Source: Solirubrobacteraceae bacterium (GTDB taxonomy: Bacteria > Actinomycetota > Thermoleophilia > Solirubrobacterales > Solirubrobacteraceae). From it: 64,000 nt of DNA. Positions 537 through 43,990 of this stretch are shown here, piece after piece. Made by a program: the position numbers and the translations under genes. Position 1 is the stretch's first letter; each line of letters opens with the position of its first letter. Location of the stretch: contig JBPPNC010000105.1 in NCBI GenBank assembly GCA_051306365.1, forward strand, positions 27,340 through 91,339, in the 5' to 3' direction. Under the pieces are notes generated by a model, which saw nothing but the letters and a program-made list of their open reading frames with translations, did no database searches and was not told where the DNA came from.

Positions 537-1316
537 ATGAAGGCGGTCATCCTCGCGGGCGGCCGGGGTACTCGGCTTGCCGAAGAGACCTCGACCCGGC
601 CCAAGCCCATGGTGGAGGTCGGCGGCAAGCCGATCCTCTGGCACATCATGAAGCAGCTCTCCACGCACGACGTGGACGAGTTCATCATCTGCCTGGGCTA
701 CCTCGGGTACGTCATCAAGGAGTGGTTTGCCAACTACACCCTGCACACGTCCGACGTGACGTTCGACATGCGCAGCGGCGAGATGGAGATCCACAAGTCC
801 ACCACGGAGCCGTGGAAGGTCACGCTCGTGGAGACGGGTGAGGACACGATGACCGGCGGGCGCCTGAAGCGGGTCCTGCCGTACGTCGGCGATGAGGAGG
901 ATTTCGTCTTCACCTACGGCGACGGCGTGGCGGACGTCGATGTCACGAAGCTCGTCGCGTTCCACCGCGAGCAGGGCCGCAAGGCCACCGTGACCGCGGT
1001 CCAGCCGACGGGCCGCTTCGGTGCACTGGGTCTCGAACCGGGCGAGGACCACATCCGCACGTTCAAGGAGAAGCCGCGCGGCGACGGCTCCTGGATCAAC
1101 GGCGGCTACTTCGTGCTGCATCCGTCCGTCGGCGAGTACATCGCCGGCGATCCGATGCCATGGGAGGAGGAGCCGCTGCGCCGCCTGGCCGAGGAAGGCC
1201 AGATCTCCGCATACCGCCACGAGGGCTTCTGGCAGGCGATGGACACCCTGCGCGACCGCCTCACGCTCGAAGAGCTGTGGGAGAGCGGGTCGCCGCCCTG
1301 GCGGACATGGCCGTAG
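537..1316 (+). CDS. rfbF: glucose-1-phosphate cytidylyltransferase
   Basis: N-terminus MKAVILAGGRGTRLAEETSTRPKPMVEVGGKPILWHIMK and ~259-aa length are typical of RfbF/DdhA. It is directly followed by rfbG. Confidence 0.93.
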   Translation: MKAVILAGGRGTRLAEETSTRPKPMVEVGGKPILWHIMKQLSTHDVDEFIICLGYLGYVIKEWFANYTLHTSDVTFDMRSGEMEIHKSTTEPWKVTLVETGEDTMTGGRLKRVLPYVGDEEDFVFTYGDGVADVDVTKLVAFHREQGRKATVTAVQPTGRFGALGLEPGEDHIRTFKEKPRGDGSWINGGYFVLHPSVGEYIAGDPMPWEEEPLRRLAEEGQISAYRHEGFWQAMDTLRDRLTLEELWESGSPPWRTWP

Positions 1317-2377
1317 ACGCCGGGTACTGGGCGGGCAAGCGGGTCCTCGTCACGGGGCACACGGGCTTCAAGGGCTCGTGGCTGTCGCGGTGGCTGACGG
1401 CGATGGGCGCGCAGGTCATCGGGCTCTCCGACGAGGTCCCTGCCCAGCCGTGCCTGTTCGTCGCCGGCCGGGTGCGCGACGAGGTCGAGCACCACGAGAT
1501 CGACGTACGTGACCGGGACGGCGTGGAGCAGGTCGTGGCGGCATCGCGACCGGACGTCGTGCTGCACCTCGCTGCGCAGGCGTACGTGCGCCGCAGCTAC
1601 CTCGAGCCCGTGGAGACGTACGCCGTGAACGTCATGGGCACCGTGAACGTTCTGGAGGCCGTGCGGCGTGCCGAATCCGTGCGTGCCGTCGTCGTGGTCA
1701 CGTCGGACAAGTGCTACGACAACCGCGAGCAGAACCGGCCGTTCACCGAGGACGATCCGATGGGCGGCCACGATCCCTACTCGAACTCGAAGGGGGCCGC
1801 GGAGCTCGTGACCGACGCGTACCGCCGGTCGTTCTTCGGCGATCCGGACGGCACGCGGATCGCCTCGGGCCGCGCGGGCAACGTCATCGGCGGCGGTGAC
1901 TGGGGCGAGGACCGCTTGATCCCGGACATGATGCGCGGCGCCCTGGCCGGCGAGCCGATCCCGATCCGCAACCCGGAGGCGATCCGGCCGTGGCAGCACG
2001 TCCTGAACCCGCTGAGCGGCTATCTCGTGCTCGCCGAGGCGCTTGCCGCCGGGCAGCCCGACGTCGCGACCGGGTTCAACTTCGGTCCCGATCCGGGCGA
2101 CGCGCAGCCGGTCAGGGTGATCGTCGAACGCCTCTCCGAACGCTGGCCCGGCGACCTGACGTGGGAGACCGACAACGGTCCGCACCCCCACGAGGCCGGA
2201 TACCTCTCGCTGGATTCCACCCGCGCCCATGAGCGGCTCGGGTGGACGCCCACCTGGGATCTCGACCACACCCTCGCCTCCATCGCCGACTGGTTCGCCG
2301 CCTACCGCGACGGCGCCGACATGCAGACGATCACGGACGCGCAGATCGCGGCCTTCGCCGGGGCGGCCTCCGTCTGA
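1307..2377 (+). CDS. rfbG: CDP-glucose 4,6-dehydratase
   Basis: ATG at 1307 overlaps the rfbF stop. Rossmann motif VLVTGHTGFKGSWL and an SDR YxxxK (YSNSK) are present. The longer ORF-track start at 1160 would overlap rfbF heavily. Confidence 0.9.
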   Translation: MAVDAGYWAGKRVLVTGHTGFKGSWLSRWLTAMGAQVIGLSDEVPAQPCLFVAGRVRDEVEHHEIDVRDRDGVEQVVAASRPDVVLHLAAQAYVRRSYLEPVETYAVNVMGTVNVLEAVRRAESVRAVVVVTSDKCYDNREQNRPFTEDDPMGGHDPYSNSKGAAELVTDAYRRSFFGDPDGTRIASGRAGNVIGGGDWGEDRLIPDMMRGALAGEPIPIRNPEAIRPWQHVLNPLSGYLVLAEALAAGQPDVATGFNFGPDPGDAQPVRVIVERLSERWPGDLTWETDNGPHPHEAGYLSLDSTRAHERLGWTPTWDLDHTLASIADWFAAYRDGADMQTITDAQIAAFAGAASV

Positions 2378-3063
2378 TGGCCACCGCGCTTGTGTTCGGC
2401 GGTCTCGGCGCGATCGGTGACGCGACCGCCAGCGTGCTGGAGCGCAGCGGGATCGTCGTCATCCGCACCGCGCGCAGCGCACAGCCCGGCGCCCTGCACA
2501 TCGACCCGATCGGCGCGCCTGAGACGCTCGCCGGCCTCGGCGAGCTGCCGCTGCTGCGCGCCGTCGTCTGGGCCCAGGGCGCGAACGTCAACGACAGCGC
2601 CGCGGACGTGGACCCCGGCGCGCTCCGCGACGTGCTCGACGCCAACGTCACCTTCGTCGCCGCCACGCTGCAGCGCCTCGTCGCCGCCGATCGCCTGGAG
2701 GCGCCGGCACGCCTGGTCGTCATCAGCTCCATCTGGGAGCAGATCGCGCGGCCCGGCAAGTTCTCGTACACGATCTCCAAGGCCGCGGTGGGCGGGCTCG
2801 TGCGTGCAGCCTCGGCCGACCTCGCCGCCGACGGGCACCTCATCAACGCCGTGCTGCCCAGTGTCACCGACACGCCGATGACACGGTCCATGCTCAGCGA
2901 TGAGCAGGTCATGCGCGTGGCCGGCGCCACGGGCTTCGACCGTCTCACGTCGCTCGACGATGTCGCGCAGACCGCGGCGTGGCTTGCGTCCGGTGCGAAC
3001 ACGGGCGTCACCGGGCAGTCCATCGCCGTCGATCTCGGGTTCTCGCATGTCCGCAGCCTCTGA
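2377..3063 (+). CDS. short-chain dehydrogenase/reductase (candidate sugar ketoreductase)
   Basis: TGATG overlap with the rfbG stop. Contains ALVFGGLGAIG nucleotide-binding motif and YTISK catalytic motif. Confidence 0.8.
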   Translation: MATALVFGGLGAIGDATASVLERSGIVVIRTARSAQPGALHIDPIGAPETLAGLGELPLLRAVVWAQGANVNDSAADVDPGALRDVLDANVTFVAATLQRLVAADRLEAPARLVVISSIWEQIARPGKFSYTISKAAVGGLVRAASADLAADGHLINAVLPSVTDTPMTRSMLSDEQVMRVAGATGFDRLTSLDDVAQTAAWLASGANTGVTGQSIAVDLGFSHVRSL

Positions 3064-4114
3064 CCTGCTGATCCGCTCCAGCTCCGGCAGCTACGGCGTG
3101 ACCATCGCCGACGGCGCCTTCGCGGCGGTCATGGCGCAGCGCGAGGGTGCCTACGTCATCGCCGACGAGCGCTTCGCCGGCCACCCCGCGCTGGACCCGG
3201 CGCGCACGATCTCCGTCGTGGCCACGGAGGACCAGAAGACCATGGCGGGCGGCGAGCGGGTGATCATCGCGCTGCGCGAGGCGGGCGCCCAGCGCGGCGA
3301 TCACGTCGTGGCCGTGGGCGGCGGGATCATCCAGGACGTCGCCACGCTCGTCGCTCAGCTCTACATGCGCGGGCTTCCGTGGAGCTACGTCCCGACGACG
3401 CTGCTCGGCATGGTCGACTCCTGCATCGGCGGGAAGTCTTCGATCAACGCCGGCCAGTTCAAGAACCTCGTGGGCAGCTTCCATCCGCCCGACGAAGTCG
3501 TCGTCGACCCGGAGTTCCTGTCGACGCTGCCCGGCGAGGCCCTCGCCGGGGGCCTCGCGGAGGCGATGAAGATCACGTACTGCCGCGGGCCAGAGGCGTT
3601 CGCCCGCTACCTCGCGCTCGCCGACGCGTTTCCCGCCAGCGCGGCGCAGCTCGTCCACCACGCGCTGGACAGCAAGCGCTGGTTCATCGAGATCGACGAG
3701 TTCGACAAGGCAGAACGGCGCCTTCTGAACTTCGGCCACACCTTCGGGCACGCCCTGGAGGCGGGCACCGGGTTCGGCGTGAGCCACGGCATCGGTGTCG
3801 CGATCGGCGTCATCGCCGCCGAGCGGTTCGCGGCGGAGACGGGCGTCGGCGCCGCGGACGCGCGACTGCGCGACCACGCGACGTCGCTGGCGGTCGAGGC
3901 TCCCGACCTCGCGGCACGGCTGGGGCGCCTCGATCCCGCCACGTTCGAGCGCGCGTTCCTCGGCGACAAGAAGCACGGAGCGGACGGCCTGCACGTCATC
4001 GTCCCGGTGGGCGAAGGCGCGGTGGGCGAGCGCGTCGTGCCCAACGAGCCCGCCACGCTCGCCGCCGTCCACGGCGCGATGCGCGAAGCGATCGCTACGG
4101 TAGGCGCCGCATGA
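3047..4114 (+). CDS. 3-dehydroquinate-synthase-like (sugar-phosphate-cyclase superfamily) protein
   Basis: GGGIIQDVA...VPTTLLGMVDSCIGGKSSIN...KNLVGSFHPP...HTFGHALE...HGIGVAIG match DHQS-family signature blocks. ATG 3047 overlaps the SDR gene's 3' end. Confidence 0.8.
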   Translation: MSAASDLLIRSSSGSYGVTIADGAFAAVMAQREGAYVIADERFAGHPALDPARTISVVATEDQKTMAGGERVIIALREAGAQRGDHVVAVGGGIIQDVATLVAQLYMRGLPWSYVPTTLLGMVDSCIGGKSSINAGQFKNLVGSFHPPDEVVVDPEFLSTLPGEALAGGLAEAMKITYCRGPEAFARYLALADAFPASAAQLVHHALDSKRWFIEIDEFDKAERRLLNFGHTFGHALEAGTGFGVSHGIGVAIGVIAAERFAAETGVGAADARLRDHATSLAVEAPDLAARLGRLDPATFERAFLGDKKHGADGLHVIVPVGEGAVGERVVPNEPATLAAVHGAMREAIATVGAA

Positions 4115-5934
4115 GCATGAAGTACAGCGACCTTCTCGTCCGCTGGCTCAAGGAGCTCGGCTACACGCACTGCTTCTTTGTCGCCGGCGGCAACGTCATG
4201 CATCTCCTGGACGGCGTCCGCAAGGAGATGACGTGCATCGCGACCGTCCATGAGGTGGCTGCGGGCATCGCCGCGGAGTACTTCAACGAGGTCGAGCCCG
4301 AGGGCCGCGCGTTCGCGATGGTGACCGCCGGCCCCGGCCTCACGAACCTCATGACGGCGCTCGGCGGCGCGTATCTCGAGTCGCGCGAGCTCCTGGTGCT
4401 CGGCGGGCAGGCCAAGGCCGAGGACCTCGCCGGCCCGGACCTGCGCCAGCGCGGCATCCAGGAGATCGACGGAGTGGCGCTCGCGGCGCCCGTCTGCAAG
4501 GCGGCCGTCCGCATCGAGGTGCCCGCGCCGAAGCACGAGATCGAACGGCTCGTCAGGCTCGGCCGCGAGGGCCGGCCCGGCCCGGTCTTCCTCGAGCTCT
4601 GTCTCGACGCGCAGGGCGCGCCGGTGGAGCCCGGGCCTCTCGAGGATCCCGCTGCGCCCGCCGTCGGGGTCACGCCCGCCGGCCACACGCCGGCGCAGGA
4701 CACCGACGTTCCGGCGCCGCCGCCCGGCATCGGCGCAGAACTTGCGGCGCGACTCGCGTCCGCGCAGCGTCCCGTCCTGCTGCTCGGCGGCGGCCTGTCG
4801 CGCGAGGCCGCGCGCGCCGCGGTGCAGCCGCTGCGTGGCCTCGGCGTCCCGCTCATGACGACGTGGAACGGCATGGACCGGGTGTCCGCGGGCGAGCCGC
4901 TCTGGTTCGGCCGGCCCAACACCTGGGGCATGCGCGCCAGCAACGTCCTGCTCCAGCAGGCCGACCTCGTGATCGCGCTGGGCACGCGCCTGGGGCTGCA
5001 GCAGACCGGGTTCAACTGGCAGCAGTTCGCGCCGATGGCCGATGTCGTGCAGGTCGATGTCGACCCGGCGGAGCTTGAGAAGGGGCACCCGCACGTCGAC
5101 CTGCCCGTTCAGGCCGACGCCGCCGCCGTCCTGCGGGAGCTCCTCGCCGCCGCAGCACCCGCCGACGTGCCCGAGTGGGTCACGTTCTGCGGGAAGGTGC
5201 GGGCGCTGCTGCCGACCGCAGAAGCGGTCAACACCACCGGTGACGGGTACGTCGACCCCTACGTCTTCACCGAGTACCTCTCCGTCCTGGCCGGAGAGGA
5301 CGACCTCGTCGTCCCCTGCTCGAGCGGCGGCGCGTTCACCGTGACCATGCAGAGTTGGCTGCAGAAGACGGGTCAGCGCGTCGTGACGAACAAGGGCCTC
5401 GCCTCGATGGGATACGGCCTCTCGGGCGCCATCGGCGCAGCGTTCGCGCACCCGGGCCGCCGGGTCATCCACATCGAGGGCGACGGCGGCTTCGCGCAGA
5501 ACCTGCAGGAGATCGCCACGGTGTCGGTCAACGCGCTGCCGCTGAAGATGTTCATCTTCTCCAACGAGGGGTACGCCTCGATCCGGATGACGCAGCGCAA
5601 CTACTTCGGGGGGCAGTACCTCGGCTGCGACACGCAGACCGGACTGGGATTTCCGGATTGGGCGCAACTCTTCGCCGCCTTCGCCGTTCCCACCATCGAA
5701 CTCGGACCCGGGTACGCTGACGATTCCGCCTTCCGGGATGCGATGGCGGCATCGGGACCGGCGGCGTTCATCGTGCCGATCGATCCCGAGCAGACCTACT
5801 TCCCGAAGATCTCGAGCCGGGTCACCGCGTCAGGCTCGATGGAGTCCAACCCCCTGCACCTCATGAGCCCAGACCTTGCCCCTGAGCTGGCCGCCGAGGT
5901 CCTTCCCCACACCACGACCGGGAGCACCGCATGA
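4111..5934 (+). CDS. thiamine-diphosphate-dependent acetolactate-synthase-like enzyme (YerE-like candidate)
   Basis: ATGA overlap with the upstream stop. ALS-like N-terminus ([26 protein letters not shown]) and ThDP motif GDGGF...SNEGY (GDG at 5479-5487). The upstream 240 aa of the ORF-track frame look like non-coding read-through. Confidence 0.85.
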
Positions 5935-6740
5935 ATTCCACCGAGCGCGAGATGCGCGACATCTTGATCCGCGGCCGTGAGGACTACGGCTACGTCGCCG
6001 TGAAGGCCGAGTTCGAGGCAGAGGGCACGCGCGTCGAGGAGCTCCTGCGGCTCGTCGAGATCGCGCACCGCTCGGACCTCAAGCTCGCGGTGAAGATCGG
6101 CGGCTGCGAGGCCGTCCGCGACCTGTTCGAGGCCAAGCAGATCGGCGTGGACTACATCATCGCGCCGATGGTCGAGACGCCCTACGCCCTGAGCAAGTAC
6201 GTGCTGGCGAAGGACAAGGCCTACTCCGAGGACGAGCAGCTCGACACGGACTTCCTGTTCAACATGGAGACCGGGACGGGCTACGCGCACCGCGAGGAGC
6301 TCGCGACCGTCGCTGCGGCCAAGCCGGGTGTCGACGGCATCGTGTTCGGCCGGGTGGACTTCGTCGGCTCGTTGCAGCGCGGGCGTGACGACATCAACGA
6401 CGACGACATCACGGACATGGTGGTCGAGACCGGCCGCCTCTGTAAGGCGAAGGGCCTGGACCTGGTGGTCGGCGGCGGCGTGTCCTCCGATTCGATCCCG
6501 GCCCTGCGTCGTATCCGCGCCGAGCACCTCACGCGCTTCGAGACGCGCAAGGTCGTGTTCGACGGGGGTGCCGTGGAGACGGACGACATCGCGGGCGGCC
6601 TGCTGAACGCCGTGCACTTCGAGCTGCTGTGGCTGAAGAACAAGCGTGAGTACTACGGCCTCATCCACGCCGAGGACGCGAAGCGCATCGACATGCTCGA
6701 GGCGCGCTGGGGCAAGCTCAGCGCGGGCGCGACCGCGTAG
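5931..6740 (+). CDS. HpcH/HpaI aldolase / citrate-lyase-family protein
   Basis: ATGA overlap with the upstream stop. Has a TIM-barrel-like pattern with [12 protein letters not shown] and [10 protein letters not shown] blocks typical of this family. Assignment is by motif only. Confidence 0.6.
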
Positions 6741-6741
6741 C

Positions 6742-7635
6742 TTGGCCGGCCGCGACGTCATCGGCGCCCTGGCGGATGCCGGCGCGCGCGTCGTGGTCAC
6801 CGGGGCGAGCGGCTGGCTGGGGCGCGTCACGTGCGATGCGCTCGAGGCCGGCGGCGTGCCGTTCCACGCGTACGCCAGCCGCGCTCGCGACGGGCTCCGC
6901 GCGCTCAACGAGCTCGGTGCGCCCCCGGCCGGGGATGGACCGTTGCTGCTGCTGCACTACGCGTTCCTCACGAAAGACAAGGTCGAGGCGCTCGGCGCCG
7001 AGGCGTACATCGCTGCGAACATCGCCATCGCCAGCCGGGTGTTGGACTGGATCGCCACGGAGCGCCCCAGCGGAGTGTTCGTGGCGTCTTCGGGCGCGGC
7101 CGCGGCGGGCCTGGCGATCGAGCAGGACCCGTACGGCGCGCTCAAGCGTCTCGACGAGCTCGCCTTCGCCCAGGCTGCGCGTGAGGCCGGCGCGCGGCTT
7201 CGGATCGCGCGGGTCTACAACGTCGCCGGCAGACACATCACCACGCCTGAGCTCTACGCGCTGGGAGACCTCGTCGGCGCCGCCCTGCGCGGTGAGCCGC
7301 TGCGCATCCGGGCGCGCGGCGACGTCGTACGCTCCTACGTCGCGGTGGACGATCTTGTCCGGCTCGTCCTGGCGGAACTGACAACCCCCGGCCTGCCCGA
7401 CCAGCTGACGTTCGACACGGCAGGTGCGACGGTGGAGGTCGGCGAGCTTGCAGAGGCGGTGCGGGCGGCGCTCGGCCGTGAAGATCTCCCCATCGAGCGT
7501 AAACGTGACCCAGCTGCACCGAAGAGCATCTACTTGGGCGATCCGGCGATCATGTCCGATCTCCTGCGCCGCCACGGCCTGACCCCGACCACACTCGACG
7601 AGCAGATTCGCGAGACCGCTGAGAGCCTTCGATGA
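6742..7635 (+). CDS. NAD-dependent epimerase/dehydratase-family protein
   Basis: Rossmann motif VVVTGASGWLG and catalytic YGALK. The start is uncertain: in-frame TTG 6742 lies 1 nt after the upstream stop, and the ORF-track start 6646 overlaps the aldolase gene. Confidence 0.7.
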   Translation: MAGRDVIGALADAGARVVVTGASGWLGRVTCDALEAGGVPFHAYASRARDGLRALNELGAPPAGDGPLLLLHYAFLTKDKVEALGAEAYIAANIAIASRVLDWIATERPSGVFVASSGAAAAGLAIEQDPYGALKRLDELAFAQAAREAGARLRIARVYNVAGRHITTPELYALGDLVGAALRGEPLRIRARGDVVRSYVAVDDLVRLVLAELTTPGLPDQLTFDTAGATVEVGELAEAVRAALGREDLPIERKRDPAAPKSIYLGDPAIMSDLLRRHGLTPTTLDEQIRETAESLR

Positions 7636-8636
7636 ACCACGACGACCGCAAGCTCATCTCCATCGTCATTCCTGCCTACAACGAGGAGGGCAACGTCGAC
7701 GAGCTCGCACGCCGCCTCGCGGCGGTGTTTGAGGAGGAGCCGCAGTACGACTTCGAGGTCCTGTTGGTGGAGAACGGCTCCGAGGACGCCACGTACGATC
7801 GTGCACTCGCGGTGCACGCGCGTGATCCGCGATTCAAGGTGGTCCAGCTCGCGCGGAACTTCCGAATGGACGGCGGCCTGACGGCCGGCCTCGCCCACGC
7901 CCACGGCGACGCGTGTGTCCTCATGGCCGCCGACCTGCAAGACCCTCCGGAGCTGATCCACGACTTCCTGCGCAAGTGGGAGGAGGGCTACGAGATCGTC
8001 TACCAGGTCGTCACCGAGCGCCAGGGCACCGGGCCGATCAGGACGCTCAACAGCAAGCTCTTCTATGTCCTGGCCAACCAGCTCACAGACGGCCGCATCC
8101 CCCGGAACGTGAGTGACTTCCGCCTCGCGGACCGGAGGGTCTACGAGACGATCAACACCATGGAGGAGCGCAACCGCTTCGTGCGGGGCCTCTTCGCGTG
8201 GGTGGGCTTCCGGGCGGTCGGGGTCGAGTCTCCGCGCCACCCACGGGTCGCGGGGGCGTCCGGCGCGCACACCCTGAAGGTCCTGGATCTTGCGCTCAAG
8301 GGCATCTTCGCCCACTCCTACGTCCCGCTCAAGCTCATCACCATCAGCGGTGTGACGCTGTCGATCATGTCGTTCGTCGCGATCGTGCTGTTCGGTCTGA
8401 GCTTTTTCTTCATCGGCGTGCCGTTCGCCGGTTTTGGCACGATCGTCTGCCTCATCCTGCTGATGTTCGGACTCCTGTTCACGATGCTGGGGATCGTCGC
8501 CGAGTACGTGGGGCTGATCTACGAGGAGGTGAAGCAGCGGCCGAACTACGTCGTACGGACCACTGCCGGCGTTGAAGACCGTCCTGCAGGGCGGCCGGCG
8601 GTCAGCAGTGCCGTGCAGGAGCCCGACGTTCCTTGA
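7632..8636 (+). CDS. family-2 glycosyltransferase of the polyprenyl-phosphate sugar synthase (GtrB/ArnC/Dpm1-like) type
   Basis: ISIVIPAYNEEGNV...LLVENGSEDAT GT-A core, followed by two C-terminal hydrophobic helices. ATGA overlap with the upstream gene. Confidence 0.85.
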   Translation: MNHDDRKLISIVIPAYNEEGNVDELARRLAAVFEEEPQYDFEVLLVENGSEDATYDRALAVHARDPRFKVVQLARNFRMDGGLTAGLAHAHGDACVLMAADLQDPPELIHDFLRKWEEGYEIVYQVVTERQGTGPIRTLNSKLFYVLANQLTDGRIPRNVSDFRLADRRVYETINTMEERNRFVRGLFAWVGFRAVGVESPRHPRVAGASGAHTLKVLDLALKGIFAHSYVPLKLITISGVTLSIMSFVAIVLFGLSFFFIGVPFAGFGTIVCLILLMFGLLFTMLGIVAEYVGLIYEEVKQRPNYVVRTTAGVEDRPAGRPAVSSAVQEPDVP

Positions 8637-9046
8637 GCAAGCCTGAGCAGAGCCTGAAGCGACAGGGCCTGCGCTTCGTCATCGTCGGCGCGGGCAACAC
8701 GGTCTTCGGCTACGGATCGTTCGCGCTGCTCCAGCTGACGTTCGGCGACCAAGTGCACTACATGGTGCTGCTCGTCGTGGCGTGGATCGTCAACGTGCTC
8801 GAGGCCTACATCGCGTACCGCTTCCTGGTCTTCCGCGTTCGCGGGCACTTCTTCCGCGATCTCGCACGTTTCAGCCTCGTCTACGTCGGCGCGTTTGCGT
8901 TCAACCTCGTCGCCCTGCCCATCGCCGTCGGCGTGTTCGGTGTGCCGGTGCTGCTCGCCCAGCTCGGAGTGCTGGTGGTCACCGTGGCGGCCAGCTTATT
9001 CGCGCACCGCAGGTTCTCGTTCCGGCGCGCCGTGCCCGGCGCCTGA
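8633..9046 (+). CDS. GtrA-family small membrane protein (putative lipid-linked sugar translocase)
   Basis: 137 aa with four hydrophobic segments and LRFVIVGAGNTVFGYGSF N-terminal motif. TTGA overlap with the GT2 stop. Confidence 0.8.
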   Translation: MSKPEQSLKRQGLRFVIVGAGNTVFGYGSFALLQLTFGDQVHYMVLLVVAWIVNVLEAYIAYRFLVFRVRGHFFRDLARFSLVYVGAFAFNLVALPIAVGVFGVPVLLAQLGVLVVTVAASLFAHRRFSFRRAVPGA

Positions 9047-9054
9047 TCCGGCCG

Positions 9055-10407
9055 CTAGGCAGGGACGGCGTCTGCGAGGTCGTCTGCTGCCTCCTGGGCC
9101 GGTCGCCGACGGGCACGCCAGTCCAGGAATGCGCTGACGAGGCATAGCGCGATGAGCACGACGAGTACGAACCGGTTGTAGTACGTGGCGTCATTCATCC
9201 GGATGCGGGGGAGGCCCTTCAGCGCGATGAGCCACGCGAAGCAGGCGAGTATCGGCCAGCCAAGCCGGATGCGTGCGGCGTCGGCAAGGAACAGCGTGAC
9301 GGGGATCAGCATGATTGGCCCGCGGTACTCGTTCGAGAACGGTGCGAGCAGGAGCGTTGCGGCGGCGATGACAGCAACCGTCTGCCAGAGCCGCGGGCGC
9401 AGCCAGAGGATCAACCCCCAGAGTGCCAGGCCCACGACGACCGCGACCGTCATGTAGGACTGCGCGAGGTCGCCGAAGACCGAGCCGCCGCCCTGCAGCG
9501 CGTCGGCCCGGATCAGCAGGGCCTTTGCGCTCGAGTTGTAGTTGAGGTTCGACGAGAGCGCCAGGTCGATGTTGTTCTGGACGATGCGCATCGCGTCGTA
9601 GCTGTCGCCGATGCTTCCGGGCATGAGCAGCAGCGGCAGATAGGTCATGGCGGCGGCGAGCACCACGCACAGCGCGGCCTGCCAGAACTTCCGCTCGAGG
9701 AGAAAGAGGACCAGGAACAGGCCGGGATGCCCCTTCATGGCGATCGCCGCAGCGAGGAGGATCGCGGCCCACACCCAGCGGTCAGCTGCCGCCAGGAGGA
9801 TCGCGCCCCAGATGAGGAGGATCAGCACGCCCTCGATGTTCCCCCGATCGACGAGCATGAGCACGGGGCCGCAGAACAGTACGAGGACCACCGCCGTACG
9901 CGCGCGGGTGAGCTGAGGCAGGAAGCGCACCGTGTACCAGGTGAGCGTCAGCAGGCCGAAGACGAGCAGCCCGAGGTACACCGGTGTCGCGACGCCGAGC
10001 GGCAGCAACTTCAACGGCAGGGCGATGACGTGGGCGAACGGCAGATACGGACTTGCCGGCAGGAGGTCCCCGTCGTTCGGGAGGTAGGGATTCGGGTCGC
10101 GCGCGCGGGCCCACATCTCGTAGAAGTCCGAGAACGTGTGGACGCCGAGGATCTTCGGCGACGTCGGGAACTCCCCACCGAAATACCCCGTGTCGTACGG
10201 AGGGAAGGCGAAGAGCGGGACCGGGTGGCCCAGGTACAGCACATGGACGTACAGGAAGGTGAACGACGTCGCGAACGCCAGGAGGATGACGAGAGTCAGG
10301 ATGTCGACGCGGCGCTCGCGGCGCTCGTCGTCGACCTGCCTGGCGTGCTGCGCGACGTCGGCTGTCTCAGCCACGACCCGAGGCGTCCGCGGGGCGCGTG
10401 CCACCAC
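9055..10407 (-). CDS. polytopic membrane glycosyltransferase, GT87/DUF2029-like (GT-C fold candidate)
   Basis: More than 10 hydrophobic segments, with an FSDFYEMW...PYLPFAH loop resembling DUF2029 mannosyltransferases. Start is ambiguous (GTG 10407/10404 or GTG 10374). It overlaps the rfbH stop. Confidence 0.6.
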
Positions 10408-11794
10408 GGTGGAACGCGTTCTCGGCGATCTCGTGAAGCGTGTCGAGCATGTACTCGATGTGCTGGTCCTTCAGCGCGGGGTAGACACCGAGCCAGAAGA
10501 CGTTCTCCATCACGAAGTCCGAGTTGCGGAGGTCGCCCACGACGCGATGCTCGATCCCGGCGTACGCCGGCTGACGTAGCAGATTGCCCGCGAACAGGAG
10601 TCGCGTGTGCACCTTGCGGTCGTTGAGGACCCGCACGATCTCGTTGCGGCTGATCGGCGCGCCTTCGCGCACCGCGATGGGAAAGCCGAACCACGAGGGG
10701 TCGCTGTGCTCGGTCGCCTCAGGCAGGATGAACAGCTCGTCAAGGTCGGCGAGGCCCTGCTTGAGCTTCGCGAAGTTCGCCTTGCGTGCTGCGACGAAGT
10801 CGTCGAGCTTGTCCAGCTGGGCGACGCCGACCGCGGCCTGCATGTCGGTGACCTTGAGGTTGAAGCCGATGTGCGAGTACGTGTACTTGTGGTCGTAGCC
10901 CTGTGGCAGCGAGCCGAACTGCTGGTCGAACCGCTTGCCGCACGTGTCCTCCTTGCCGGGCTCGCACCAGCAGTCGCGGCCCCAGTCGCGGAAGGACTCG
11001 GCGATGACCTTCATGCGCCCGCTGTTGCAGAGCACCGCCCCGCCTTCGCCCATCGTGATGTGGTGGGCGGGGAAGAAGCTCACGGTGGCGAATTCGCCGA
11101 ACGACCCGACGTGCCGACCGTCGTAGGTGCTGCCGAGCGCGTCGCAGCAGTCCTCGACGAGCCACAGGTCGTGCTCGTCGCAGAAGGCGCGGATGGTCCG
11201 CAGGTCGAACGTGTTGCCCAGCGTGTGGGCGAGCATGACCGCCTTCGTCTTCTTGCTGAGCGCGTCCTCGAGGTGGGTGACGTCGATGTTGTACGTCGGG
11301 ATGTCGACGTCGAGGAAGACGGGGACGGCCCCTTGCTGGATCAGGGGATTGACCGTCGTCGGGAAGCCGGTGGCAACGGTGATGAACTCGTCGCCCGGTT
11401 TCACGCGGCGCTCACCGAGCTGCGGTGAGGTCAGCGCCGACCCGGCGACGAGGTTCGCCGACGACCCGCTGTTGACCAGGATCGTGTGACGGACCCCGAA
11501 GACCTCGCGGCCGAACCGCCGCTCGAAGGTGTGGGCGTAGCGGCCGGTCGTCAGCCAGAAGTCGAGCGACGAGTCGACGAGGCTGACGACCTCCTCCTCG
11601 TCGAAGACGCGTCCGGCGACCGGAACCGGCGTCTCTCCGGGCGTGAAGTCGCGGGCCGGGAAGGCTTCGGCGTGGTACTCGCGGGTGAGGCGGAGGATCC
11701 GCTCTCGCAGTTCGTCGGCACGCCGCGGAGCGGGCTGCGCGCCGTTGGTGTCACGTGAAGGCACAGCGGCCGAGTCTAGACCAGCATTCGGCAC
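10367..11794 (-). CDS. rfbH: CDP-6-deoxy-L-threo-D-glycero-4-hexulose-3-dehydrase (E1)
   Basis: DegT-fold protein with E1 hallmarks. [13 protein letters not shown] has His in place of the PLP lysine. Cluster motif C-X1-C-X7-C ([11 protein letters not shown]) lies at nt 10939-10971. Start could be GTG 11794 or GTG 11767. Confidence 0.9.
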
Positions 11795-11841
11795 CGGCGT
11801 GTCCCCGTGAGCCGGACGGGCCCTGCACTAAGGTCACGCCG

Positions 11842-13893
11842 ATGCCGTTGATCAAACGACGCCTGCCGCTTGAACTGCTGGCGGTGGTCGGCCTCCAGGT
11901 CCTCCTGTTGTGGCCGCTCCTGACGACGCCCTACATGGGCGACGACGGGTTGAACGCATCGTTCTCCGGGGGAATGGCGACGACGCACCAGTCGTTCACG
12001 GAGTTGACGTGGAACGTCGCCGAGGGGTGGATCGTCCAGCAGGGACGGTGGTTCCCGGCGAGCTTCTACCTGGGCTACGGGCAGTTTGCCCTCGTGCACT
12101 CCATGGTCGGCTACAAGCTGCTGCTGCTGCTGTGGGTCGTGCTGTCGACGGTGTGCGTGATGGCCCTCGTGCGCAGGCTCGGCGGCGGTCCGGCGGTGGC
12201 GGCCCTGGTGGCGATCGGCGCGACGCTCACCGTGCAGTTCCGCTTCTACAACGACCCGGTCATCTCCTATACGGGCCTCATGCAGAGCGTGCTGGCGATG
12301 ATGGCGCTGTCCGCCCTGCTCTTCGATGTCTGGCTTCGTGATCGAAGGTGGTGGGCGCTCGTCCTCAGCCTTGTCCTGATCGTGCTCGCCGCCTCGACGT
12401 ACGAGTCTGCGCCGCTGCTCTGCGGCATGCATCTCGTCGTCGCGATCGCCGAGCGGCACAACCTTCGACGGGGGATGCTCGCGTCGCTGCCGGCGCTGGC
12501 CACCGGCGCGGCGATGCTCGTGCTGTCGCTGGTACTGCGCGCTCGAGCGACTGCACCGAGCCCGGCCTATGAGGCGAACGCCGATCTCAGCGTATTCATC
12601 CCGGCGTTCGGCAAGCAGCTGCTGGGGACGCTCCCGCTGAGTTACGCCGCCTTCAATCCGGGCAGCGTCTTCCTCTTCCGGGGCGACGCCTTCGTGAAGT
12701 CCATGGGACCCGCTTCGATCATCGCCGGCGTGCTCGTGGCGCTGGTGGTCTTCTGGCTCGTGCGGGAGGCGTGGAACTGGTCCTTCACCGCGCCATGGAC
12801 GCCCTGGCTCGCCATGGGGCTCGGCATCGTCCTGATCCTCGCTCCGGCGGCGCCCATCGCGCTGGCACGCCGGTACCAAGCCGAGCTGGTGCCCGGAATC
12901 AGCTACCTCCCCGTGTATCTCCAGGGCTTCGGCCTCGCGCTGGTGGCAGCGGGTCTTCTCGGTCTCCTGCGGCGCTCGCTCCGGCGCACCGGAGCGGTCA
13001 TGGTCGTCGCGTCGGTGGTTCTGGCGCTCGGCGCCGGCAGTGTCGCAGCCGTCACCCATCGGGCCAACACGCTCGTCCGCGATGGGATGCAGCCCACACG
13101 CGACGTGCAGCTGAACCTGCGGCACGCCGTCGAGGCCGGCCTGTTTGCCGACGCGTCCAGCCCCCGGACTCTCGTCACGCTCGACGCCGCTCCCTACTGG
13201 CTGACGCCGGAGTTCGTTGCGACCTATCGGCCGGTCCTCTTCCCTGCGGGGGCTCGGGTCCCGGATCCCGGCGCGATTGATACGAAGGATGCCGCGGGTG
13301 ACTGGTACGTGCAGCCGGGTCAGTTCGAGGCGTGGGCCGGGCCGATCGCCGGCGGTGCGCCGGCCAAGCTGTTTCTCGCCAAGGGGTCCGGTCATACCCG
13401 CGTCGCCCTCCTGGGTGGTGAGCGCCCGGGGGCCCTGGTCCACCCCGATCCCGAGGCCGACCGTATGGTCACGCTGCCCCGTGGCGTGCTCGCGCACGAC
13501 GTGGCCGTCGTGCCAGTGGCGGATGAGTCGGCTCCCACGCTCTATGGGTTCGCCGGTTGCAGCGGCCCGGACCCGGGGAGCCTGAATGTTCCGTGCGGAC
13601 GGCTCGGCGCTGTCGCGGTCGTCAACCCCACCGGTGAGCCGCTTCGCGTCGACGTGCGCGCGACCGTCTCGACCAGTGGCCCGCGTCCCGCCGCAGTTCA
13701 GCTGAGCTGGCCCGATGGCACGCGGTCGCTGCGTGTGGGACTCACCGCCAAGCCGGTCAGCATGTCCCTGAATTTGCCGGCGCGCGGTGCGACGGTCATC
13801 CGTGTGCAGACGAGCGCCCGTCCTGTCCCGGCGACCCTTGATCCGCGGAGGTGGTCCGTCGTCCTCGGCGGTGCGAGCGTGACCGCCGACTGA
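11842..13893 (+). CDS. large polytopic membrane protein (GT-C-like candidate) with an extracytoplasmic C-terminal beta-rich domain
   Basis: ATG 11842 avoids overlapping rfbH. About 12 hydrophobic segments are followed by ~250 soluble residues. The C-terminus is paralogous to ORF 3..524. Confidence 0.65.
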   Translation: MPLIKRRLPLELLAVVGLQVLLLWPLLTTPYMGDDGLNASFSGGMATTHQSFTELTWNVAEGWIVQQGRWFPASFYLGYGQFALVHSMVGYKLLLLLWVVLSTVCVMALVRRLGGGPAVAALVAIGATLTVQFRFYNDPVISYTGLMQSVLAMMALSALLFDVWLRDRRWWALVLSLVLIVLAASTYESAPLLCGMHLVVAIAERHNLRRGMLASLPALATGAAMLVLSLVLRARATAPSPAYEANADLSVFIPAFGKQLLGTLPLSYAAFNPGSVFLFRGDAFVKSMGPASIIAGVLVALVVFWLVREAWNWSFTAPWTPWLAMGLGIVLILAPAAPIALARRYQAELVPGISYLPVYLQGFGLALVAAGLLGLLRRSLRRTGAVMVVASVVLALGAGSVAAVTHRANTLVRDGMQPTRDVQLNLRHAVEAGLFADASSPRTLVTLDAAPYWLTPEFVATYRPVLFPAGARVPDPGAIDTKDAAGDWYVQPGQFEAWAGPIAGGAPAKLFLAKGSGHTRVALLGGERPGALVHPDPEADRMVTLPRGVLAHDVAVVPVADESAPTLYGFAGCSGPDPGSLNVPCGRLGAVAVVNPTGEPLRVDVRATVSTSGPRPAAVQLSWPDGTRSLRVGLTAKPVSMSLNLPARGATVIRVQTSARPVPATLDPRRWSVVLGGASVTAD

Positions 13894-13922
13894 CGGACGC
13901 GCTACCGCGTACAGTGCGCGCC

Positions 13923-16214
13923 ATGAGCGACGGCGGCGGGCTCGACTCCGAGCAGGACAGCCTCCTCCTTCGGCTCCGTGTGGCCGAGTTGGAGCGCGGG
14001 ATCGAGGAGGCGTGGGCGCAGGTCGCGACACAGTCCACGACGCTCGACGACGTGCGCCGGACGCTCCGGTGGCGGTCGGGCGAACTGCTGCGCCGCGCCC
14101 GCCGCGCCGTGCGCGAGGACGTGTGTACGGCGAGGCAGGCTGATGTCCCGCGGATCCCACTGGCGGGTCTCCACGCGCAGGCGTCCGGAGGCTCGGGGCC
14201 GCGCTGGCGCGACGAGGTCGTCGTCGACGGCGTGGCACTCCCCGGACTGCTCGCTGATCCGCCGCAAGAACTCAGCTGGCGCGTCATCCCGTCGCCCGGG
14301 TTCCTGCTTCGGACGTTCTGCGCACTGCGCCCGGCGGGCTGGATGCGCAACGCGGGGGGCGTCCGCTTCACCGCCTCGGTGTTCGGCGCCGAGGGCGAGC
14401 CGGTCCGTGCAGTGTCCCGGGTCGTGGACCCGGCTGCTCGGCACGAGGACCGCGTCTGGCGTCTGCTCGAGCTCGACCTCAACGGGCTCGCCGCCACCGA
14501 GCACCGCCTCGTCCTGCGCACCGACCTACCCGACGGCACGAACGGAGTGTACGCCTGGGCCGTCTGGGGCGACCCCGTGCTGCTTGACCGCCCTGCCAGC
14601 CCGCCGCCGTCGCTTCCGGCCGCGCTGGCCGACGAGGCCCGCGGCGTCCTCGAGCGGCGGTTCGGCCCCGCTGCGCCTTCGCCCGGTCGGCCCGTCGACC
14701 ACCCGGTCATCTCCCTGCTGGTGCCCGTGCACGACCCCGCCCCGGCGCTGCTCGACGCGCTGCTCGACAGCGTGCGCGCGCAGAGTTCGCCCCACTGGCA
14801 GTTGTGCCTCTGCGACGACGGTTCGCGCGACCCCGAAGTCCGCCGCCGGCTGGGTGACGCCGAGGCGTCCGACGAGCGCATCGCGCTCACCCGTCACGAC
14901 GACGCGCAGAGCATCTCCGCGGCCACGAATGCCGCCTTCTCGCTCGCCATCGGCGCCTACGTCGCGCCGCTCGACCATGACGACGTCCTGCACCCCGACG
15001 CGATCGCCGACGTGGGCGCGGTCGTCGCACGAGATCCCGCCGTCGACATGGTCTACACCGACAACGACAAGGCCGTCCCGGACGGTCGGCGCTTCGCGCC
15101 CGCGCTCAAGCCCGACTGGGCGCCGGAGCAGCTGCGGGCGCTCATGTACACACTGCACCTCGGGGTGTACCGCCGCGCGCTCGTCGAGGAGCTCGGTGGC
15201 TGGCGTCCGGCATTTGACGGCGCGCAGGACCATGATCTCGTCCTGCGCATCGCCGAGCGGACGAGCCGGGTCGCCCACGTACCGCGGGTGCGCTACAGCT
15301 GGCGTGTGCACGAGGGTTCGGCGTCGCTGTCCGAGGAGGCAAAGCCCGAAGCCTACGATCGCGGGTGCCGCGCGGTGGCCGAGCATCTCCAGCGAACTGG
15401 CGTCGCCGCCCGCGCCGAGCGTCTGGCGCAGGCAGGGCGCTACCGGGTGGTGCACGAGCCCGTGCCGGCCGGCGCAGTGGACGTCATCCTGCCGGTCTCC
15501 CTCGAGGCCGATCCCGCACACGTCGCAGACGCCGTGCGCGGGCTGGGCACCGTCACGGTCGTCGGCGCACACCAGGATGCCGCTCGCGCGGCAGGCGCCG
15601 CGGTGGTCGGCTGCGATGACCACCGGTGGGGCGCGCTCGCGCGAGCGGGGATCGCGGCGACCTCAACGGCGTTCGTGATCCTGCTCGAGGAGCTCTGCAT
15701 CCCCGAGACACCCGACTGGCGCGACGAGCTGTGCGGGCTGGCGGGCGAGCCGGCAGTCGCTGCGGCGGGCGCGCTCGTCGTGGACGGCGACGACATGACG
15801 GTGCACGCCGGGATCGCGCTGCCGCGCGGCGTGCCGCTGCCCGTCCACCCGGGCGCGCCGACCCACGGCGACGAGGTTCCCGACGAGCTGACCTTCGTCA
15901 CGAACCGCTCGGCGGTGTCGGGCGCCGTGGCCTTCCGCCGTGAACGCGTCGCAGGAGACGCCGGCCCCGACCCGCGTGCCGACCGGCATGCGCTGGCGGC
16001 CCTGACCCTCGCGCTCACCGCGCGCGCCGGTAGGGTCGTCTGCACCCCGCATGCGCGGCTGCGCATCATCGGGCCGTCGCGGGGCACCGTGGCCGCCCTC
16101 GCCGAGCTCCACGCCGTCGCCGATCACCGTGCAGGCCGGCCCGATCCCTACTACAACCCCCAGCTCTGGGGCGACCGCGCCGCCCACGTCGCGCCCGCGG
16201 CGCTGACCCGCTGA
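13923..16214 (+). CDS. multidomain family-2 glycosyltransferase with N-terminal coiled-coil
   Basis: ATG 13923. N-terminal heptad-like LLLRLRVAELERGIEEAW, then a GT-A core ISLLVPVHDPAPALLDALLDSV...LCLCDDGS...DHDD and a second degenerate GT-like half. Confidence 0.75.
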   Translation: MSDGGGLDSEQDSLLLRLRVAELERGIEEAWAQVATQSTTLDDVRRTLRWRSGELLRRARRAVREDVCTARQADVPRIPLAGLHAQASGGSGPRWRDEVVVDGVALPGLLADPPQELSWRVIPSPGFLLRTFCALRPAGWMRNAGGVRFTASVFGAEGEPVRAVSRVVDPAARHEDRVWRLLELDLNGLAATEHRLVLRTDLPDGTNGVYAWAVWGDPVLLDRPASPPPSLPAALADEARGVLERRFGPAAPSPGRPVDHPVISLLVPVHDPAPALLDALLDSVRAQSSPHWQLCLCDDGSRDPEVRRRLGDAEASDERIALTRHDDAQSISAATNAAFSLAIGAYVAPLDHDDVLHPDAIADVGAVVARDPAVDMVYTDNDKAVPDGRRFAPALKPDWAPEQLRALMYTLHLGVYRRALVEELGGWRPAFDGAQDHDLVLRIAERTSRVAHVPRVRYSWRVHEGSASLSEEAKPEAYDRGCRAVAEHLQRTGVAARAERLAQAGRYRVVHEPVPAGAVDVILPVSLEADPAHVADAVRGLGTVTVVGAHQDAARAAGAAVVGCDDHRWGALARAGIAATSTAFVILLEELCIPETPDWRDELCGLAGEPAVAAAGALVVDGDDMTVHAGIALPRGVPLPVHPGAPTHGDEVPDELTFVTNRSAVSGAVAFRRERVAGDAGPDPRADRHALAALTLALTARAGRVVCTPHARLRIIGPSRGTVAALAELHAVADHRAGRPDPYYNPQLWGDRAAHVAPAALTR

Positions 16215-16216
16215 CC

Positions 16217-17407: not shown

Positions 17408-17437
17408 CGGCCGGGGCCTGAGTACGATCGATGGCTC

Positions 17438-21007: not shown

Positions 21008-21265
21008 GTGGCCGGCTCGGACGACGCGCTGCGCTTCCGGGTCCGGCAGGTCGCCGCGCTGCGGGGGCTGCTCGCGCAGCGGACGGCGGAGCGTGACGAG
21101 GCGCGGCACCGGGCCGCCGCCGCGCTGGCCGAGCTCGAGCGGGCGACCGCCTCGCACGACGCCGCGCTGCGCGAGCGCGACGCCGCGATCGCCGAGCGCG
21201 ACGCGGCGCGGACCGAGAGCGACCCGCAGAAGAAGCGTTCGCGCTGGCTGGGAGGCGGCGCGTGA
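21008..21265 (+). CDS. 85-aa coiled-coil ORF, in the same frame as the 1189-aa protein and separated from it only by TGA
   Basis: GTG 21008 directly follows TGA 21005-21007 in the same reading frame. Sequence is heptad-like (ALRERDAAIAERDAAR). Its stop overlaps the next GT2 start (GTGA). Confidence 0.4.
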   Translation: MAGSDDALRFRVRQVAALRGLLAQRTAERDEARHRAAAALAELERATASHDAALRERDAAIAERDAARTESDPQKKRSRWLGGGA

Positions 21266-43565: not shown

Positions 43566-43990
43566 GTGGTCGTGGAACTCGGCGACGGCAACGACTACGC
43601 GTACACGCTGCCGAGCGCGCCGAACGTCCCCCTCACCTTCGACGGCGGCGCCGGTACCGACAAGCTGAAGATCGCCGCGGCCCTCTCCGCGACCCTCATC
43701 GGCGGTGACGGCAAGGACGAACTCGAATCCGAGATCGGCGCCGACGTCCTGCGCGGCGGCGAGGGCGACGGCAGGAAGGTCACCGTGAAGGCGAAGGCGG
43801 GTAGGCGCACCGTTGCCACGGGGCGCGCGAAGGTCGCCGCGACGGCACAGCCACCGTGACCCTGAAGTTCACGAACGCTGGCAAGCGCGCCCTGAAGCGC
43901 AAGAAGACCGTGACGCTCACGATCACCGCGGGGGCGGTGACCGGGAAGGTCACGGCTCAAACGCCAGGACGCCAGGACACCAGCACCTGA
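43566..43990 (+). pseudogene. relic of a Ca-binding (RTX-like GG.G.D repeat) secreted protein, 5'-truncated and frameshifted
   Basis: FDGGAGTDKL, IGGDGKDEL and RGGEGDG repeats occupy frame 1. After a frameshift near 43850, a typical tail reads GTATVTLKFTNAGKRALKRKKTVTLTITAG. Confidence 0.45.

Follow-up and report, generated by a model that had tools for sequence, protein, structure and literature searches.

The window analysed here is a stretch of 64,000 nt (G+C about 71%) from a soil actinobacterium of the Solirubrobacteraceae, and the element examined within it is the cassette at positions 537–11794, whose genes are compared below with the caryophyllose module of Mycobacterium marinum. Caryophyllose is a cell-surface sugar with a long branch. 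Genes were found by listing and translating open reading frames (ORFs), their products were scanned with Pfam and NCBIfam profiles, and the downstream gene calls were made by GC3 (the G+C content of third codon positions). An earlier note on this DNA had named a chain consisting of rfbF, rfbG, a short-chain dehydrogenase/reductase (SDR), a dehydroquinate synthase (DHQS)-like gene, a thiamine diphosphate (ThDP) enzyme, an aldolase, a reductase, a GT2 glycosyltransferase and GtrA; each was found at, or within a few bases of, the position given there. The features of the cassette are as follows.

537–1316 (+): rfbF/ddhA, glucose-1-phosphate cytidylyltransferase, which makes CDP-glucose (TIGR02623 equivalog, 412 bits, cutoff 300)
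1307–2377 (+): rfbG/ddhB, CDP-glucose 4,6-dehydratase (TIGR02622 equivalog, 456 bits, cutoff 278)
2377–3063 (+): SDR1, classical short-chain reductase (adh_short_C2, 88 bits)
3047–4114 (+): DHQS-like protein of the sugar-phosphate-cyclase superfamily (PF01761 and PF24621)
4111–5934 (+): YerE-like ThDP carboligase (three TPP domains; GDGGF...SNEGY readable in the translation)
5931–6740 (+): divergent class II (HpcH/HpaI-fold) pyruvate aldolase (PF03328, 30.8 bits, cutoff 25, partial match)
6742–7635 (+): Red2, extended-SDR reductase (PF01370, 62 bits; the TTG start at 6742 is uncertain)
7632–8636 (+): GT2 of the GtrB/ArnC/PgfS type (PF00535; PgfS 229 bits and ArnC 134 bits, both below cutoff)
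8633–9046 (+): GtrA-family small membrane protein (PF04138, 50.5 bits)
9055–10407 (-): GT87-family membrane glycosyltransferase of the GT-C type (PF09594, 70.6 bits, cutoff 25)
10367–11794 (-): rfbH/ddhC (E1), CDP-6-deoxy-L-threo-D-glycero-4-hexulose 3-dehydratase (NF011936 equivalog, 722 bits, cutoff 423)

The near-universal start/stop overlaps reported for this chain (ATGA, TGATG, TTGA) were seen again. The rfbF and rfbG genes overlap by 10 nt, with the rfbG ATG overlapping the rfbF stop; the rfbG/SDR1 junction is TGATG; SDR1 and the DHQS-like gene overlap by 17 nt; the DHQS-like/ThDP and ThDP/aldolase junctions are both ATGA; and the Red2/GT2 and GT2/GtrA junctions are ATGA and TTGA, respectively. 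The sole exception is the aldolase/Red2 junction, where a 1-nt gap precedes the TTG start. The rfbH gene does lie 1.3 kb away on the other strand, as had been claimed, but the interval is not empty and holds the GT87 gene, which had gone unmentioned. The NF011936 alignment to RfbH begins at residue 25, and the true rfbH start is probably downstream of 11794. All the genes for CDP-4-keto-3,6-dideoxyglucose are present, i.e., rfbF, rfbG and rfbH, each scoring above its equivalog cutoff.

The window proteins were compared by tblastn with 80 related loci, many of which are truncated contigs. Among these loci is one from M. ahvazicum, whose DHQS-like protein led to an M. marinum orthologue, P0137 (82% identity). 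The M. marinum locus reads, in order, GtrA, rfbG, rfbH, rfbF, GT2, ThDP enzyme, HpcH aldolase, SDR, DHQS-like, FGGY kinase and GT87, and the window proteins were identical to their M. marinum counterparts at the following levels.

Aldolase (MMAR_2331 orthologue): 62%
GT2 (MMAR_2333, WcaA orthologue): 60%
RfbH: 55%
ThDP enzyme (MMAR_2332 orthologue): 54%, over about 600 residues
RfbF: 52%
RfbG: 45%
DHQS-like protein (P0137): 41%
GtrA: 38%
SDR1 (M. marinum SDR): 30%

The product of the ThDP gene in the M. marinum locus was 99% identical to 'IlvB1_3 [M. marinum M]'. Knockouts of MMAR_2331, MMAR_2332 and MMAR_2333 accumulate LOS-II*, a lipooligosaccharide (LOS) without caryophyllose (PMC5706390, PMC9306805), and MMAR_2332 is reported to take gamma-hydroxy 2-keto acids (PMC9306805). 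Taken with the identities listed above, the M. marinum genetics indicate that the window carries the gene set of a genetically validated caryophyllose module, and it is very likely that the cassette is a caryophyllose-type module orthologous to the one in M. marinum. The suggestion of a caryophyllose-type product, made from the window's letters, thus turned out to be the best reading. The claim that the route was of an undescribed kind did not survive, since a scheme was published in 2022 and almost the whole set of genes is present in the caryophyllose locus of M. marinum; the cassette is a known pathway type in a new lineage (Solirubrobacterales). That scheme, by Steitz et al. (PMC9306805), is a unifying proposal for acyl-branched sugars, partly tested, in which the functionalised 2-keto acid produced by an aldolase is joined to CDP-4-keto-3,6-dideoxyglucose by a ThDP enzyme resembling YerE, after which a reductase completes the branch; the examples given include erwiniose (ErwE/F/I/J), caryophyllose, gastriose and a C6-branched sugar of Rhodopseudomonas palustris. 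Full-text searches for literature linking caryophyllose or LOS with dehydroquinate or aroB returned none, and no role was assigned there to the SDR/DHQS-like pair.

We examined the ThDP enzyme using JanthE (8RPH) as the YerE-like reference in place of YerE itself. JanthE was also the best PDB match, at 316 bits, versus 195 bits for the best acetolactate synthase (ALS), and the window enzyme fell below every NCBIfam cutoff, those for ALS among them. Its identification as a true acetolactate synthase or sulfoacetaldehyde acetyltransferase was therefore rejected, in agreement with the YerE-like character first proposed. A PDB sequence search with the aldolase gave no real relative (only ribosomal protein L18, at E = 0.24), and because of this the fold was assigned from an AlphaFold2 (AF2) model with Foldseek. 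The model had a pLDDT of 89.9 and the top matches were HpaI, HpcH, YfaU and GarL (probability 1.0, TM 0.55–0.60, 11–18% identity), so that the description of the aldolase as HpcH-like holds at the level of the HpcH/HpaI fold. Invariant E, D and R residues, candidates for the metal-binding Glu/Asp and pyruvate-binding Arg of HpaI, are present in the aldolase family. The aldolase gene adjoins the ThDP gene, with the ATGA overlap given above, as expected of a pyruvate aldolase of the MMAR_2331 family. A search with the aldolase matched more than 7000 clusters (61–91% identity across phyla), a protein annotated from a Solirubrobacteraceae MAG (metagenome-assembled genome) was 100% identical to it, and its relatives number at least 520 confirmed matches in a species-level genome collection.

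SDR1, the DHQS-like gene, the ThDP gene and the aldolase gene occurred together in 56 of the 80 related loci, and rfbF, rfbG or rfbH also lay within the locus in 41 of these 56 four-gene cores; the cassette genes thus keep company with rfbFGH genes in many relatives, as had been expected of them. The lineages with the core are Actinomycetota, Acidobacteriota, Eremiobacterota/Vulcanimicrobiota, and Alpha-, Beta- and Gammaproteobacteria. The SDR gene was no more than 150 nt from the DHQS-like gene in 58 of 59 loci. The SDR1/DHQS-like pair is part of a conserved cassette in at least four phyla, and the cassette gene arrangement is far beyond chance. Across the 80 loci Red2 occurred independently of the DHQS-like gene, and GT2 proteins with at least 48% identity were found mainly in Actinomycetota and Eremiobacterota. 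Three of the contigs that carry the cassette (L001, L002 and L007) are labelled 'Bifidobacterium breve' or 'Bifidobacterium sp.', and these taxon labels look wrong; L001 (G+C 69%) and L002 (G+C 61%) are the closest relatives of the window.

If the aldolase product is phosphorylated, clusters without the DHQS-like gene would be expected to carry a phosphatase. In L001 a phosphatase gene of the haloacid dehalogenase (HAD) type (HAD_2, 88 bits; 9226–9909), lying between the ThDP and aldolase genes, replaces the SDR and DHQS-like genes, and the aldolase of this locus is 91% identical to that of the window. Homologous HAD genes lie between the aldolase and ThDP genes in L042, L057, L058, L062, L070 and L080, with weaker cases in L046 and L054. 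L019, from a Hydrogenophaga MAG, has an inositol-monophosphatase-family gene (10961–11788) directly downstream of the aldolase gene; no SDR gene, DHQS-like gene or recognisable ThDP gene was found near that aldolase. Slot counts were restricted to the well-flanked loci, those with at least 4 kb on each side (n = 56): 39 had the DHQS-like gene only, 8 HAD only, 2 both and 7 neither (Fisher p = 1.5e-4, uncorrected for phylogeny). As a simple phosphatase can replace the pair, the net job of the DHQS-like enzyme and its SDR would be phosphate removal.

The two enzymes flanking this slot behaved differently. HAD-type aldolases are up to 91–92% identical to DHQS-type aldolases, i.e., the aldolase does not track the swap. 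The ThDP enzymes do: those of the acidobacterial HAD-type loci group together, that of L001 shares only 64% identity with the window enzyme, and in a comparison of 51 DHQS-type with 8 HAD-type enzymes the column of window residue F409 held F in 48 and Y in 3 of the DHQS-type, and N, E or Y in all 8 of the HAD-type. An indifferent aldolase and a tracking ThDP enzyme suggest that the aldolase step is shared, that phosphate removal comes next, and that the ThDP enzyme distinguishes the resulting donors by their distal ends. The mycobacterial DHQS-like gene is overlapped at its 3' end by a gene for an FGGY kinase (L081:11061–12338 and L074:12619–13935). As a general member of the cassette this kinase was rejected, being confined to mycobacteria; it fits a phosphorylated precursor. 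A phosphorylated intermediate is thus indicated by the invariance of the DHQS residues described below, by the HAD and inositol-monophosphatase swaps, by the slot counts and by the mycobacterial FGGY kinase.

Other occupants of the region were seen in mycobacteria. In M. gordonae (L083:11911–13020) and M. shinjukuense (L084:11912–13021) a NeuB-family gene replaces the aldolase, SDR and DHQS-like genes and is followed by a 214–243 aa protein (no Pfam family) and a methyltransferase, with the scaffold of GtrA, rfbG, rfbH, rfbF, GT2 and ThDP genes unchanged; this swap points to another ulosonic-acid donor and hence to another branch. In M. malmoense (L085:11931–14836) a DegT-type aminotransferase and WbqC come after the aldolase in place of SDR and DHQS-like, which may represent an amino-substituted branch or an unrelated neighbour. 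The gastriose cluster of M. gastri, for which a phosphatase and no DHQS-like gene were predicted, was sought, and M. gastri was not among the named matches; the loci of M. gordonae, M. shinjukuense and M. malmoense took its place in the comparison. Cultured carriers of the DHQS-type cassette among the related loci are Pararobbsia silviterrae DHC34 (L049), Granulicella sp. dw_53 (L050), Pseudomonas sp. 286 (L077) and M. ahvazicum (L074).

The best-scoring model for the DHQS-like protein was TIGR04425 ('AroB-related putative sugar phosphate phospholyase (cyclizing)'), at 258 bits with a cutoff of 400. Against aroB (TIGR01357) it scored 226 bits with a cutoff of 305, and five relatives from other phyla gave 245–248 bits for aroB and 276–320 bits for TIGR04425, all below the cutoffs. 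A shikimate AroB was therefore rejected on the curated score, in line with the reading of the earlier note, and the M. marinum copy is an extra paralogue inside the LOS locus. Residues were placed by aligning 59 cassette-linked sequences to solved DHQS structures. The catalytic, zinc and phosphate sites of Aspergillus nidulans DHQS, which we take to be R130, D146, K152, N162, E194, K197, K250, R264, N268, H271, H275, H287 and K356, lie in the window protein at R108, D124, K130, N140, E172, K175, K210, R224, N228, H231, H235, H247 and K309, and these 13 residues were invariant in the 59 sequences except for one K197-to-R change. This invariance points to a DAHP-like substrate (DAHP is 3-deoxy-D-arabino-heptulosonate 7-phosphate), that is, probably a phosphorylated 3-deoxy-2-ulosonate. 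Also invariant in the 59 sequences were Cys126 (in DSCIGGK) and Gln96 (in GGGxxQD), at positions where true DHQS presumably has Ser and Gly; these two residues may be markers of an altered reaction outcome.

We propose, with a probability of about 0.7, that window positions 537–11794 are a self-contained module for making and attaching CDP-activated caryophyllose or a stereoisomer of it. The product would be a 3,6-dideoxyhexose with a six-carbon, terminally deoxygenated branch at C4, attached to a cell-envelope glycan. By homology, RfbF, RfbG and RfbH would supply CDP-4-keto-3,6-dideoxyglucose and the HpcH-fold aldolase would form a 2-keto-3-deoxy acid; its substrates may be pyruvate and, probably, D-erythrose 4-phosphate, giving a DAHP-like 3-deoxy-heptulosonate 7-phosphate. 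The DHQS-like enzyme would then carry out NAD-dependent oxidation at C5, elimination of the phosphate and re-reduction at C5, with no productive cyclisation, and SDR1 would reduce the resulting C6 ketone to yield a 3,7-dideoxy-heptulosonate, the C7 methyl group of which would end up at the tip of the branch. An open-chain 2,6-diketo acid is plausible as a free intermediate; a related compound is a substrate of the archaeal type II dehydroquinate synthase. The YerE-like ThDP enzyme would decarboxylate the acid and add the remainder to C4 of CDP-4-keto-3,6-dideoxyglucose, and Red2 would, like YerF, reduce the ketone at C1' of the branch so formed. Relatives bearing a phosphatase would simply dephosphorylate the same intermediate and leave a terminal CH2OH.

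The branch of caryophyllose is 1,3,4,5-tetrahydroxyhexyl, deoxy at C2' and ending in a methyl group, with a D-erythro pair in its name; by our own reasoning it matches a 3-deoxy-2-ulosonate built from pyruvate and a D-erythrose unit, minus the terminal oxygen. The parts of this pathway are held with different firmness. A deoxygenating removal of the phosphate by the DHQS-like enzyme and SDR1 stands at about even odds. It is possible, at slightly less than that, that the aldolase acts before the DHQS-like enzyme. Equally tentative is the full statement that the DHQS-like enzyme and its obligate SDR form a phosphate-eliminating 'deoxygenase' that acts on 3-deoxy-heptulosonate 7-phosphate and creates the caryophyllose-type terminal methyl. 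There are two candidates for the side-chain ketoreductase, SDR1 and Red2; co-occurrence favours Red2, and M. marinum has no Red2 nearby.

For transfer to the envelope, GT2 would move the sugar from CDP to polyprenyl phosphate, GtrA (a putative flippase) would turn the polyprenyl-phosphate sugar across the membrane, and GT87 would pass the sugar from polyprenyl phosphate to the envelope glycan on the outer side of the membrane. All three components are in place (GT2 has hydrophobic C-terminal segments in its translation), and this route is reasonably likely. GT2 lies outside the exact PgfS and ArnC families because its scores are below their equivalog cutoffs. GT87 proteins are known as polyprenyl-phosphate-mannose transferases in mycobacteria. 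GT87 genes flank the cassettes of M. marinum, M. ahvazicum, M. gordonae, M. shinjukuense and M. malmoense, and tblastn gave no link between these and the window GT87, the match being by family only. A similar idea of outer-face transfer has been raised for the LOS of M. kansasii.

Several points weigh against the pathway drawn here. To our knowledge every characterised DHQS-family enzyme cyclises and no non-cyclising member is known; the DHQS intermediate tends, moreover, to cyclise spontaneously. The roles given to the individual DHQS residues are presumed ones, and the match of F409 to the donor-pocket Trp392 of Zymomonas pyruvate decarboxylase is a putative equivalence drawn by eye from an alignment. 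The well-flanked loci with both slot types (2/56) or neither (7/56) do not follow the swap, and the HAD-type loci come from only about 3–4 independent lineages, so that the statistics are weak. An E3 reductase gene (AscD/DdhD-type, Fer2/FNR) was sought among the scanned window ORFs and none was seen, although E3 is no requirement of the reference cluster, as the M. marinum locus is also without it. No Red2 homologue was found within 10 kb of the M. marinum cassette, where the YerF-like reductase may be the one SDR present, so that no enzyme would be left for C6 reduction; homologues at 33–37% identity are present in the M. ahvazicum, M. gordonae and M. shinjukuense clusters. The window host is an uncultured Solirubrobacteraceae MAG. 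In the mmpL12 study, LOS-II and LOS-III bearing caryophyllose accumulated 'intracellularly', which is uneasy with addition at the outer face. Finally, the aldolase substrates in the scheme of Steitz et al. (PMC9306805) are pyruvate and a free aldehyde ('28'), not a phosphate. This last point is also what recommends a different order of steps, in which the DHQS-like enzyme and SDR1 would first turn erythrose 4-phosphate into free 4-deoxy-erythrose (by C2 oxidation, phosphate elimination, re-reduction and ketone reduction) and the aldolase would then join pyruvate to it. Such an order would remove the cyclisation problem, as a four-carbon substrate cannot cyclise; the HAD/DHQS-like swap would fit equally well if the phosphatase acts before the aldolase; and the 91–92% aldolase identity is compatible with it, as the aldolase may be insensitive to whether the distal end of its acceptor bears OH or H. 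We nevertheless consider it unlikely, since the DHQS site residues are invariant, including K250 and R264 (presumably the holders of the DAHP carboxylate), whereas a C4 aldehyde has no carboxylate, and acyclic erythrose 4-phosphate would be a poor mimic of the pyranose form of DAHP.

The 'cyclase' of the earlier note, with carbocyclisation of the product, has to be set beside these. The DHQS-like enzyme could be a true cyclase whose product, a dehydroquinate epimer or cyclitol, serves as the ThDP donor, as part of a caryose-like sugar or as a separate glycan component. The window would then make a genuinely novel sugar bearing a carbocycle, in keeping with the earlier note. The habit of the superfamily noted above speaks for this, as do the complete DHQS catalytic set, the name of the nearest NCBIfam model ('phospholyase (cyclizing)') and the fact that caryose biosynthesis is unknown (PMC9092360). 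We regard it as quite improbable, because no carbocycle appears among the sugars that PMC5706390 lists for M. marinum LOS (glucose/trehalose, methyl-rhamnose, xylose, caryophyllose and N-acylated dideoxygalactose), a simple phosphatase can replace the pair, and the obligatory coupling of SDR1 to the DHQS-like enzyme fits the reduction of an open-chain ketone. Hardly credible at all is an ordinary yersiniose-type pathway, in which pyruvate would supply a two-carbon branch, and the genes for the aldolase, the DHQS-like enzyme and the SDR would belong to an unrelated pathway transcribed along with it. YerE itself does use pyruvate, and the donor of the window ThDP enzyme is a predicted one; but the four genes are translationally coupled in the window and syntenic across phyla in the 56 core loci, the ThDP enzyme resembles MMAR_2332, which is required for caryophyllose and takes longer hydroxy-keto acids, and the related ErwE is reported to reject pyruvate (PMC9306805). 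The caryophyllose module, with the aldolase acting ahead of phosphate removal, is the reading that we retain.

The surroundings of the cassette were examined with Pfam.

11755–22410 (+): a 712-aa polytopic membrane protein, then GT2, GT4, a GT4-methyltransferase fusion and GT2

This row is probably the rest of a surface-glycan locus and builds the acceptor; beyond about 22.4 kb the Pfam scans showed content unrelated to the cassette. The 712-aa protein (11755–13893, +) has many predicted membrane segments, a large C-terminal domain and no Pfam family, and its gene overlaps the rfbH start region on the opposite strand; it was rejected as a conserved member of the cassette, as there was no homologue in the 80 related loci. 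Within the GT2/GT4 row (13851–22410) lies an 1189-aa GT4 protein with a C-terminal methyltransferase fused to it (17438–21007, +), probably for assembly of the acceptor glycan. A PMT_2-family (GT-C) membrane glycosyltransferase (34594–35901, +), some 23 kb away from the cassette, could be another user of polyprenyl-phosphate sugars. A 666-aa protein (43957–45957, -) combines an N-terminal holin-like domain of four transmembrane segments (PF04020) with a type I phosphodiesterase domain, an unusual pairing.

Long-branched 3,6-dideoxyhexoses have so far been regarded as curiosities of a handful of bacteria, namely Burkholderia caryophylli, M. marinum, M. gastri, Pectobacterium and Rhodopseudomonas palustris. 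With the aldolase family in at least 520 genomes and the cassette spread across phyla, surface antigens of this kind are probably common among soil bacteria. The published scheme leaves a gap as to where the caryophyllose branch gets its C4 unit and its deoxygenated end; the comparison offers a testable answer, and gives proposed roles to two genes of the M. marinum LOS locus that are not discussed in the searchable literature. If the proposal is true, a DHQS-like enzyme that stops before cyclisation would be a new reaction outcome in a well-studied superfamily and a useful route to deoxy-ulosonic acids for ThDP biocatalysis. In that case the slot near the aldolase and ThDP genes would act as an interchangeable unit that decides how the branch ends, with DHQS-like plus SDR giving CH3, a HAD or inositol-monophosphatase-family enzyme giving CH2OH and a NeuB-type enzyme giving another acid, and branch structures would be predictable from sequence in hundreds of soil bacteria.

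Compared with AroB and the sugar-phosphate cyclases, the DHQS-like protein has the same two domains and keeps the catalytic, zinc-site and phosphate-site residues; it differs in sitting in a nucleotide-sugar operon, always with an SDR, and its outcome would be an open-chain deoxy acid and no carbocycle. In the logic of KDO (3-deoxy-D-manno-octulosonic acid) and sialic acid synthesis (KdsA with KdsC; NeuB-type), a C3 donor and a sugar phosphate give a 3-deoxy-2-ulosonate phosphate that a HAD phosphatase dephosphorylates. The HAD-type variants of the cassette resemble this condensation followed by HAD dephosphorylation, but the acid of the cassette is not CMP-activated; the ThDP enzyme instead decarboxylates it onto another sugar, and in the window the phosphate would be lost by elimination and reduction, not hydrolysis. 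Like the GtrA/GtrB/GtrC and ArnC/ArnT systems, the window combines a GtrA-family protein with a GT2 that has membrane segments at its C-terminus and with a polytopic transferase of the GT-C type; it differs in that its third component is GT87 and its donor would be a CDP-linked branched dideoxyhexose. Yersiniose A synthesis (YerE/YerF, Yersinia pseudotuberculosis) uses the same acceptor sugar, with ThDP carboligation at C4 and then ketoreduction, but the branch added by YerE is a two-carbon unit taken from pyruvate, for which neither an aldolase nor a DHQS-like enzyme nor a second reductase is required. The scheme of Steitz et al. (PMC9306805) is alike in joining CDP-4-keto-3,6-dideoxyglucose to an aldolase-derived 2-keto acid by a YerE-like ThDP enzyme, followed by a reductase; its main text does not say where the C4 aldehyde comes from, nor does it assign a function to a DHQS-like enzyme or its SDR, and ErwI is a BphI-type aldolase paired with an acetaldehyde dehydrogenase, whereas the window aldolase has the HpcH fold. 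The M. marinum module corresponds to the cassette in almost every gene. Gene order and strands differ, M. marinum has the FGGY kinase and the window has Red2, and the acceptor there is an acyltrehalose glycolipid, whereas the neighbours of the window cassette are GT2/GT4 genes, probably of a surface glycan; but the rfbF, rfbG, rfbH, GT2, GtrA, ThDP, HpcH aldolase, SDR, DHQS-like and GT87 families are present in both, and in both the SDR gene lies directly upstream of the DHQS-like gene.

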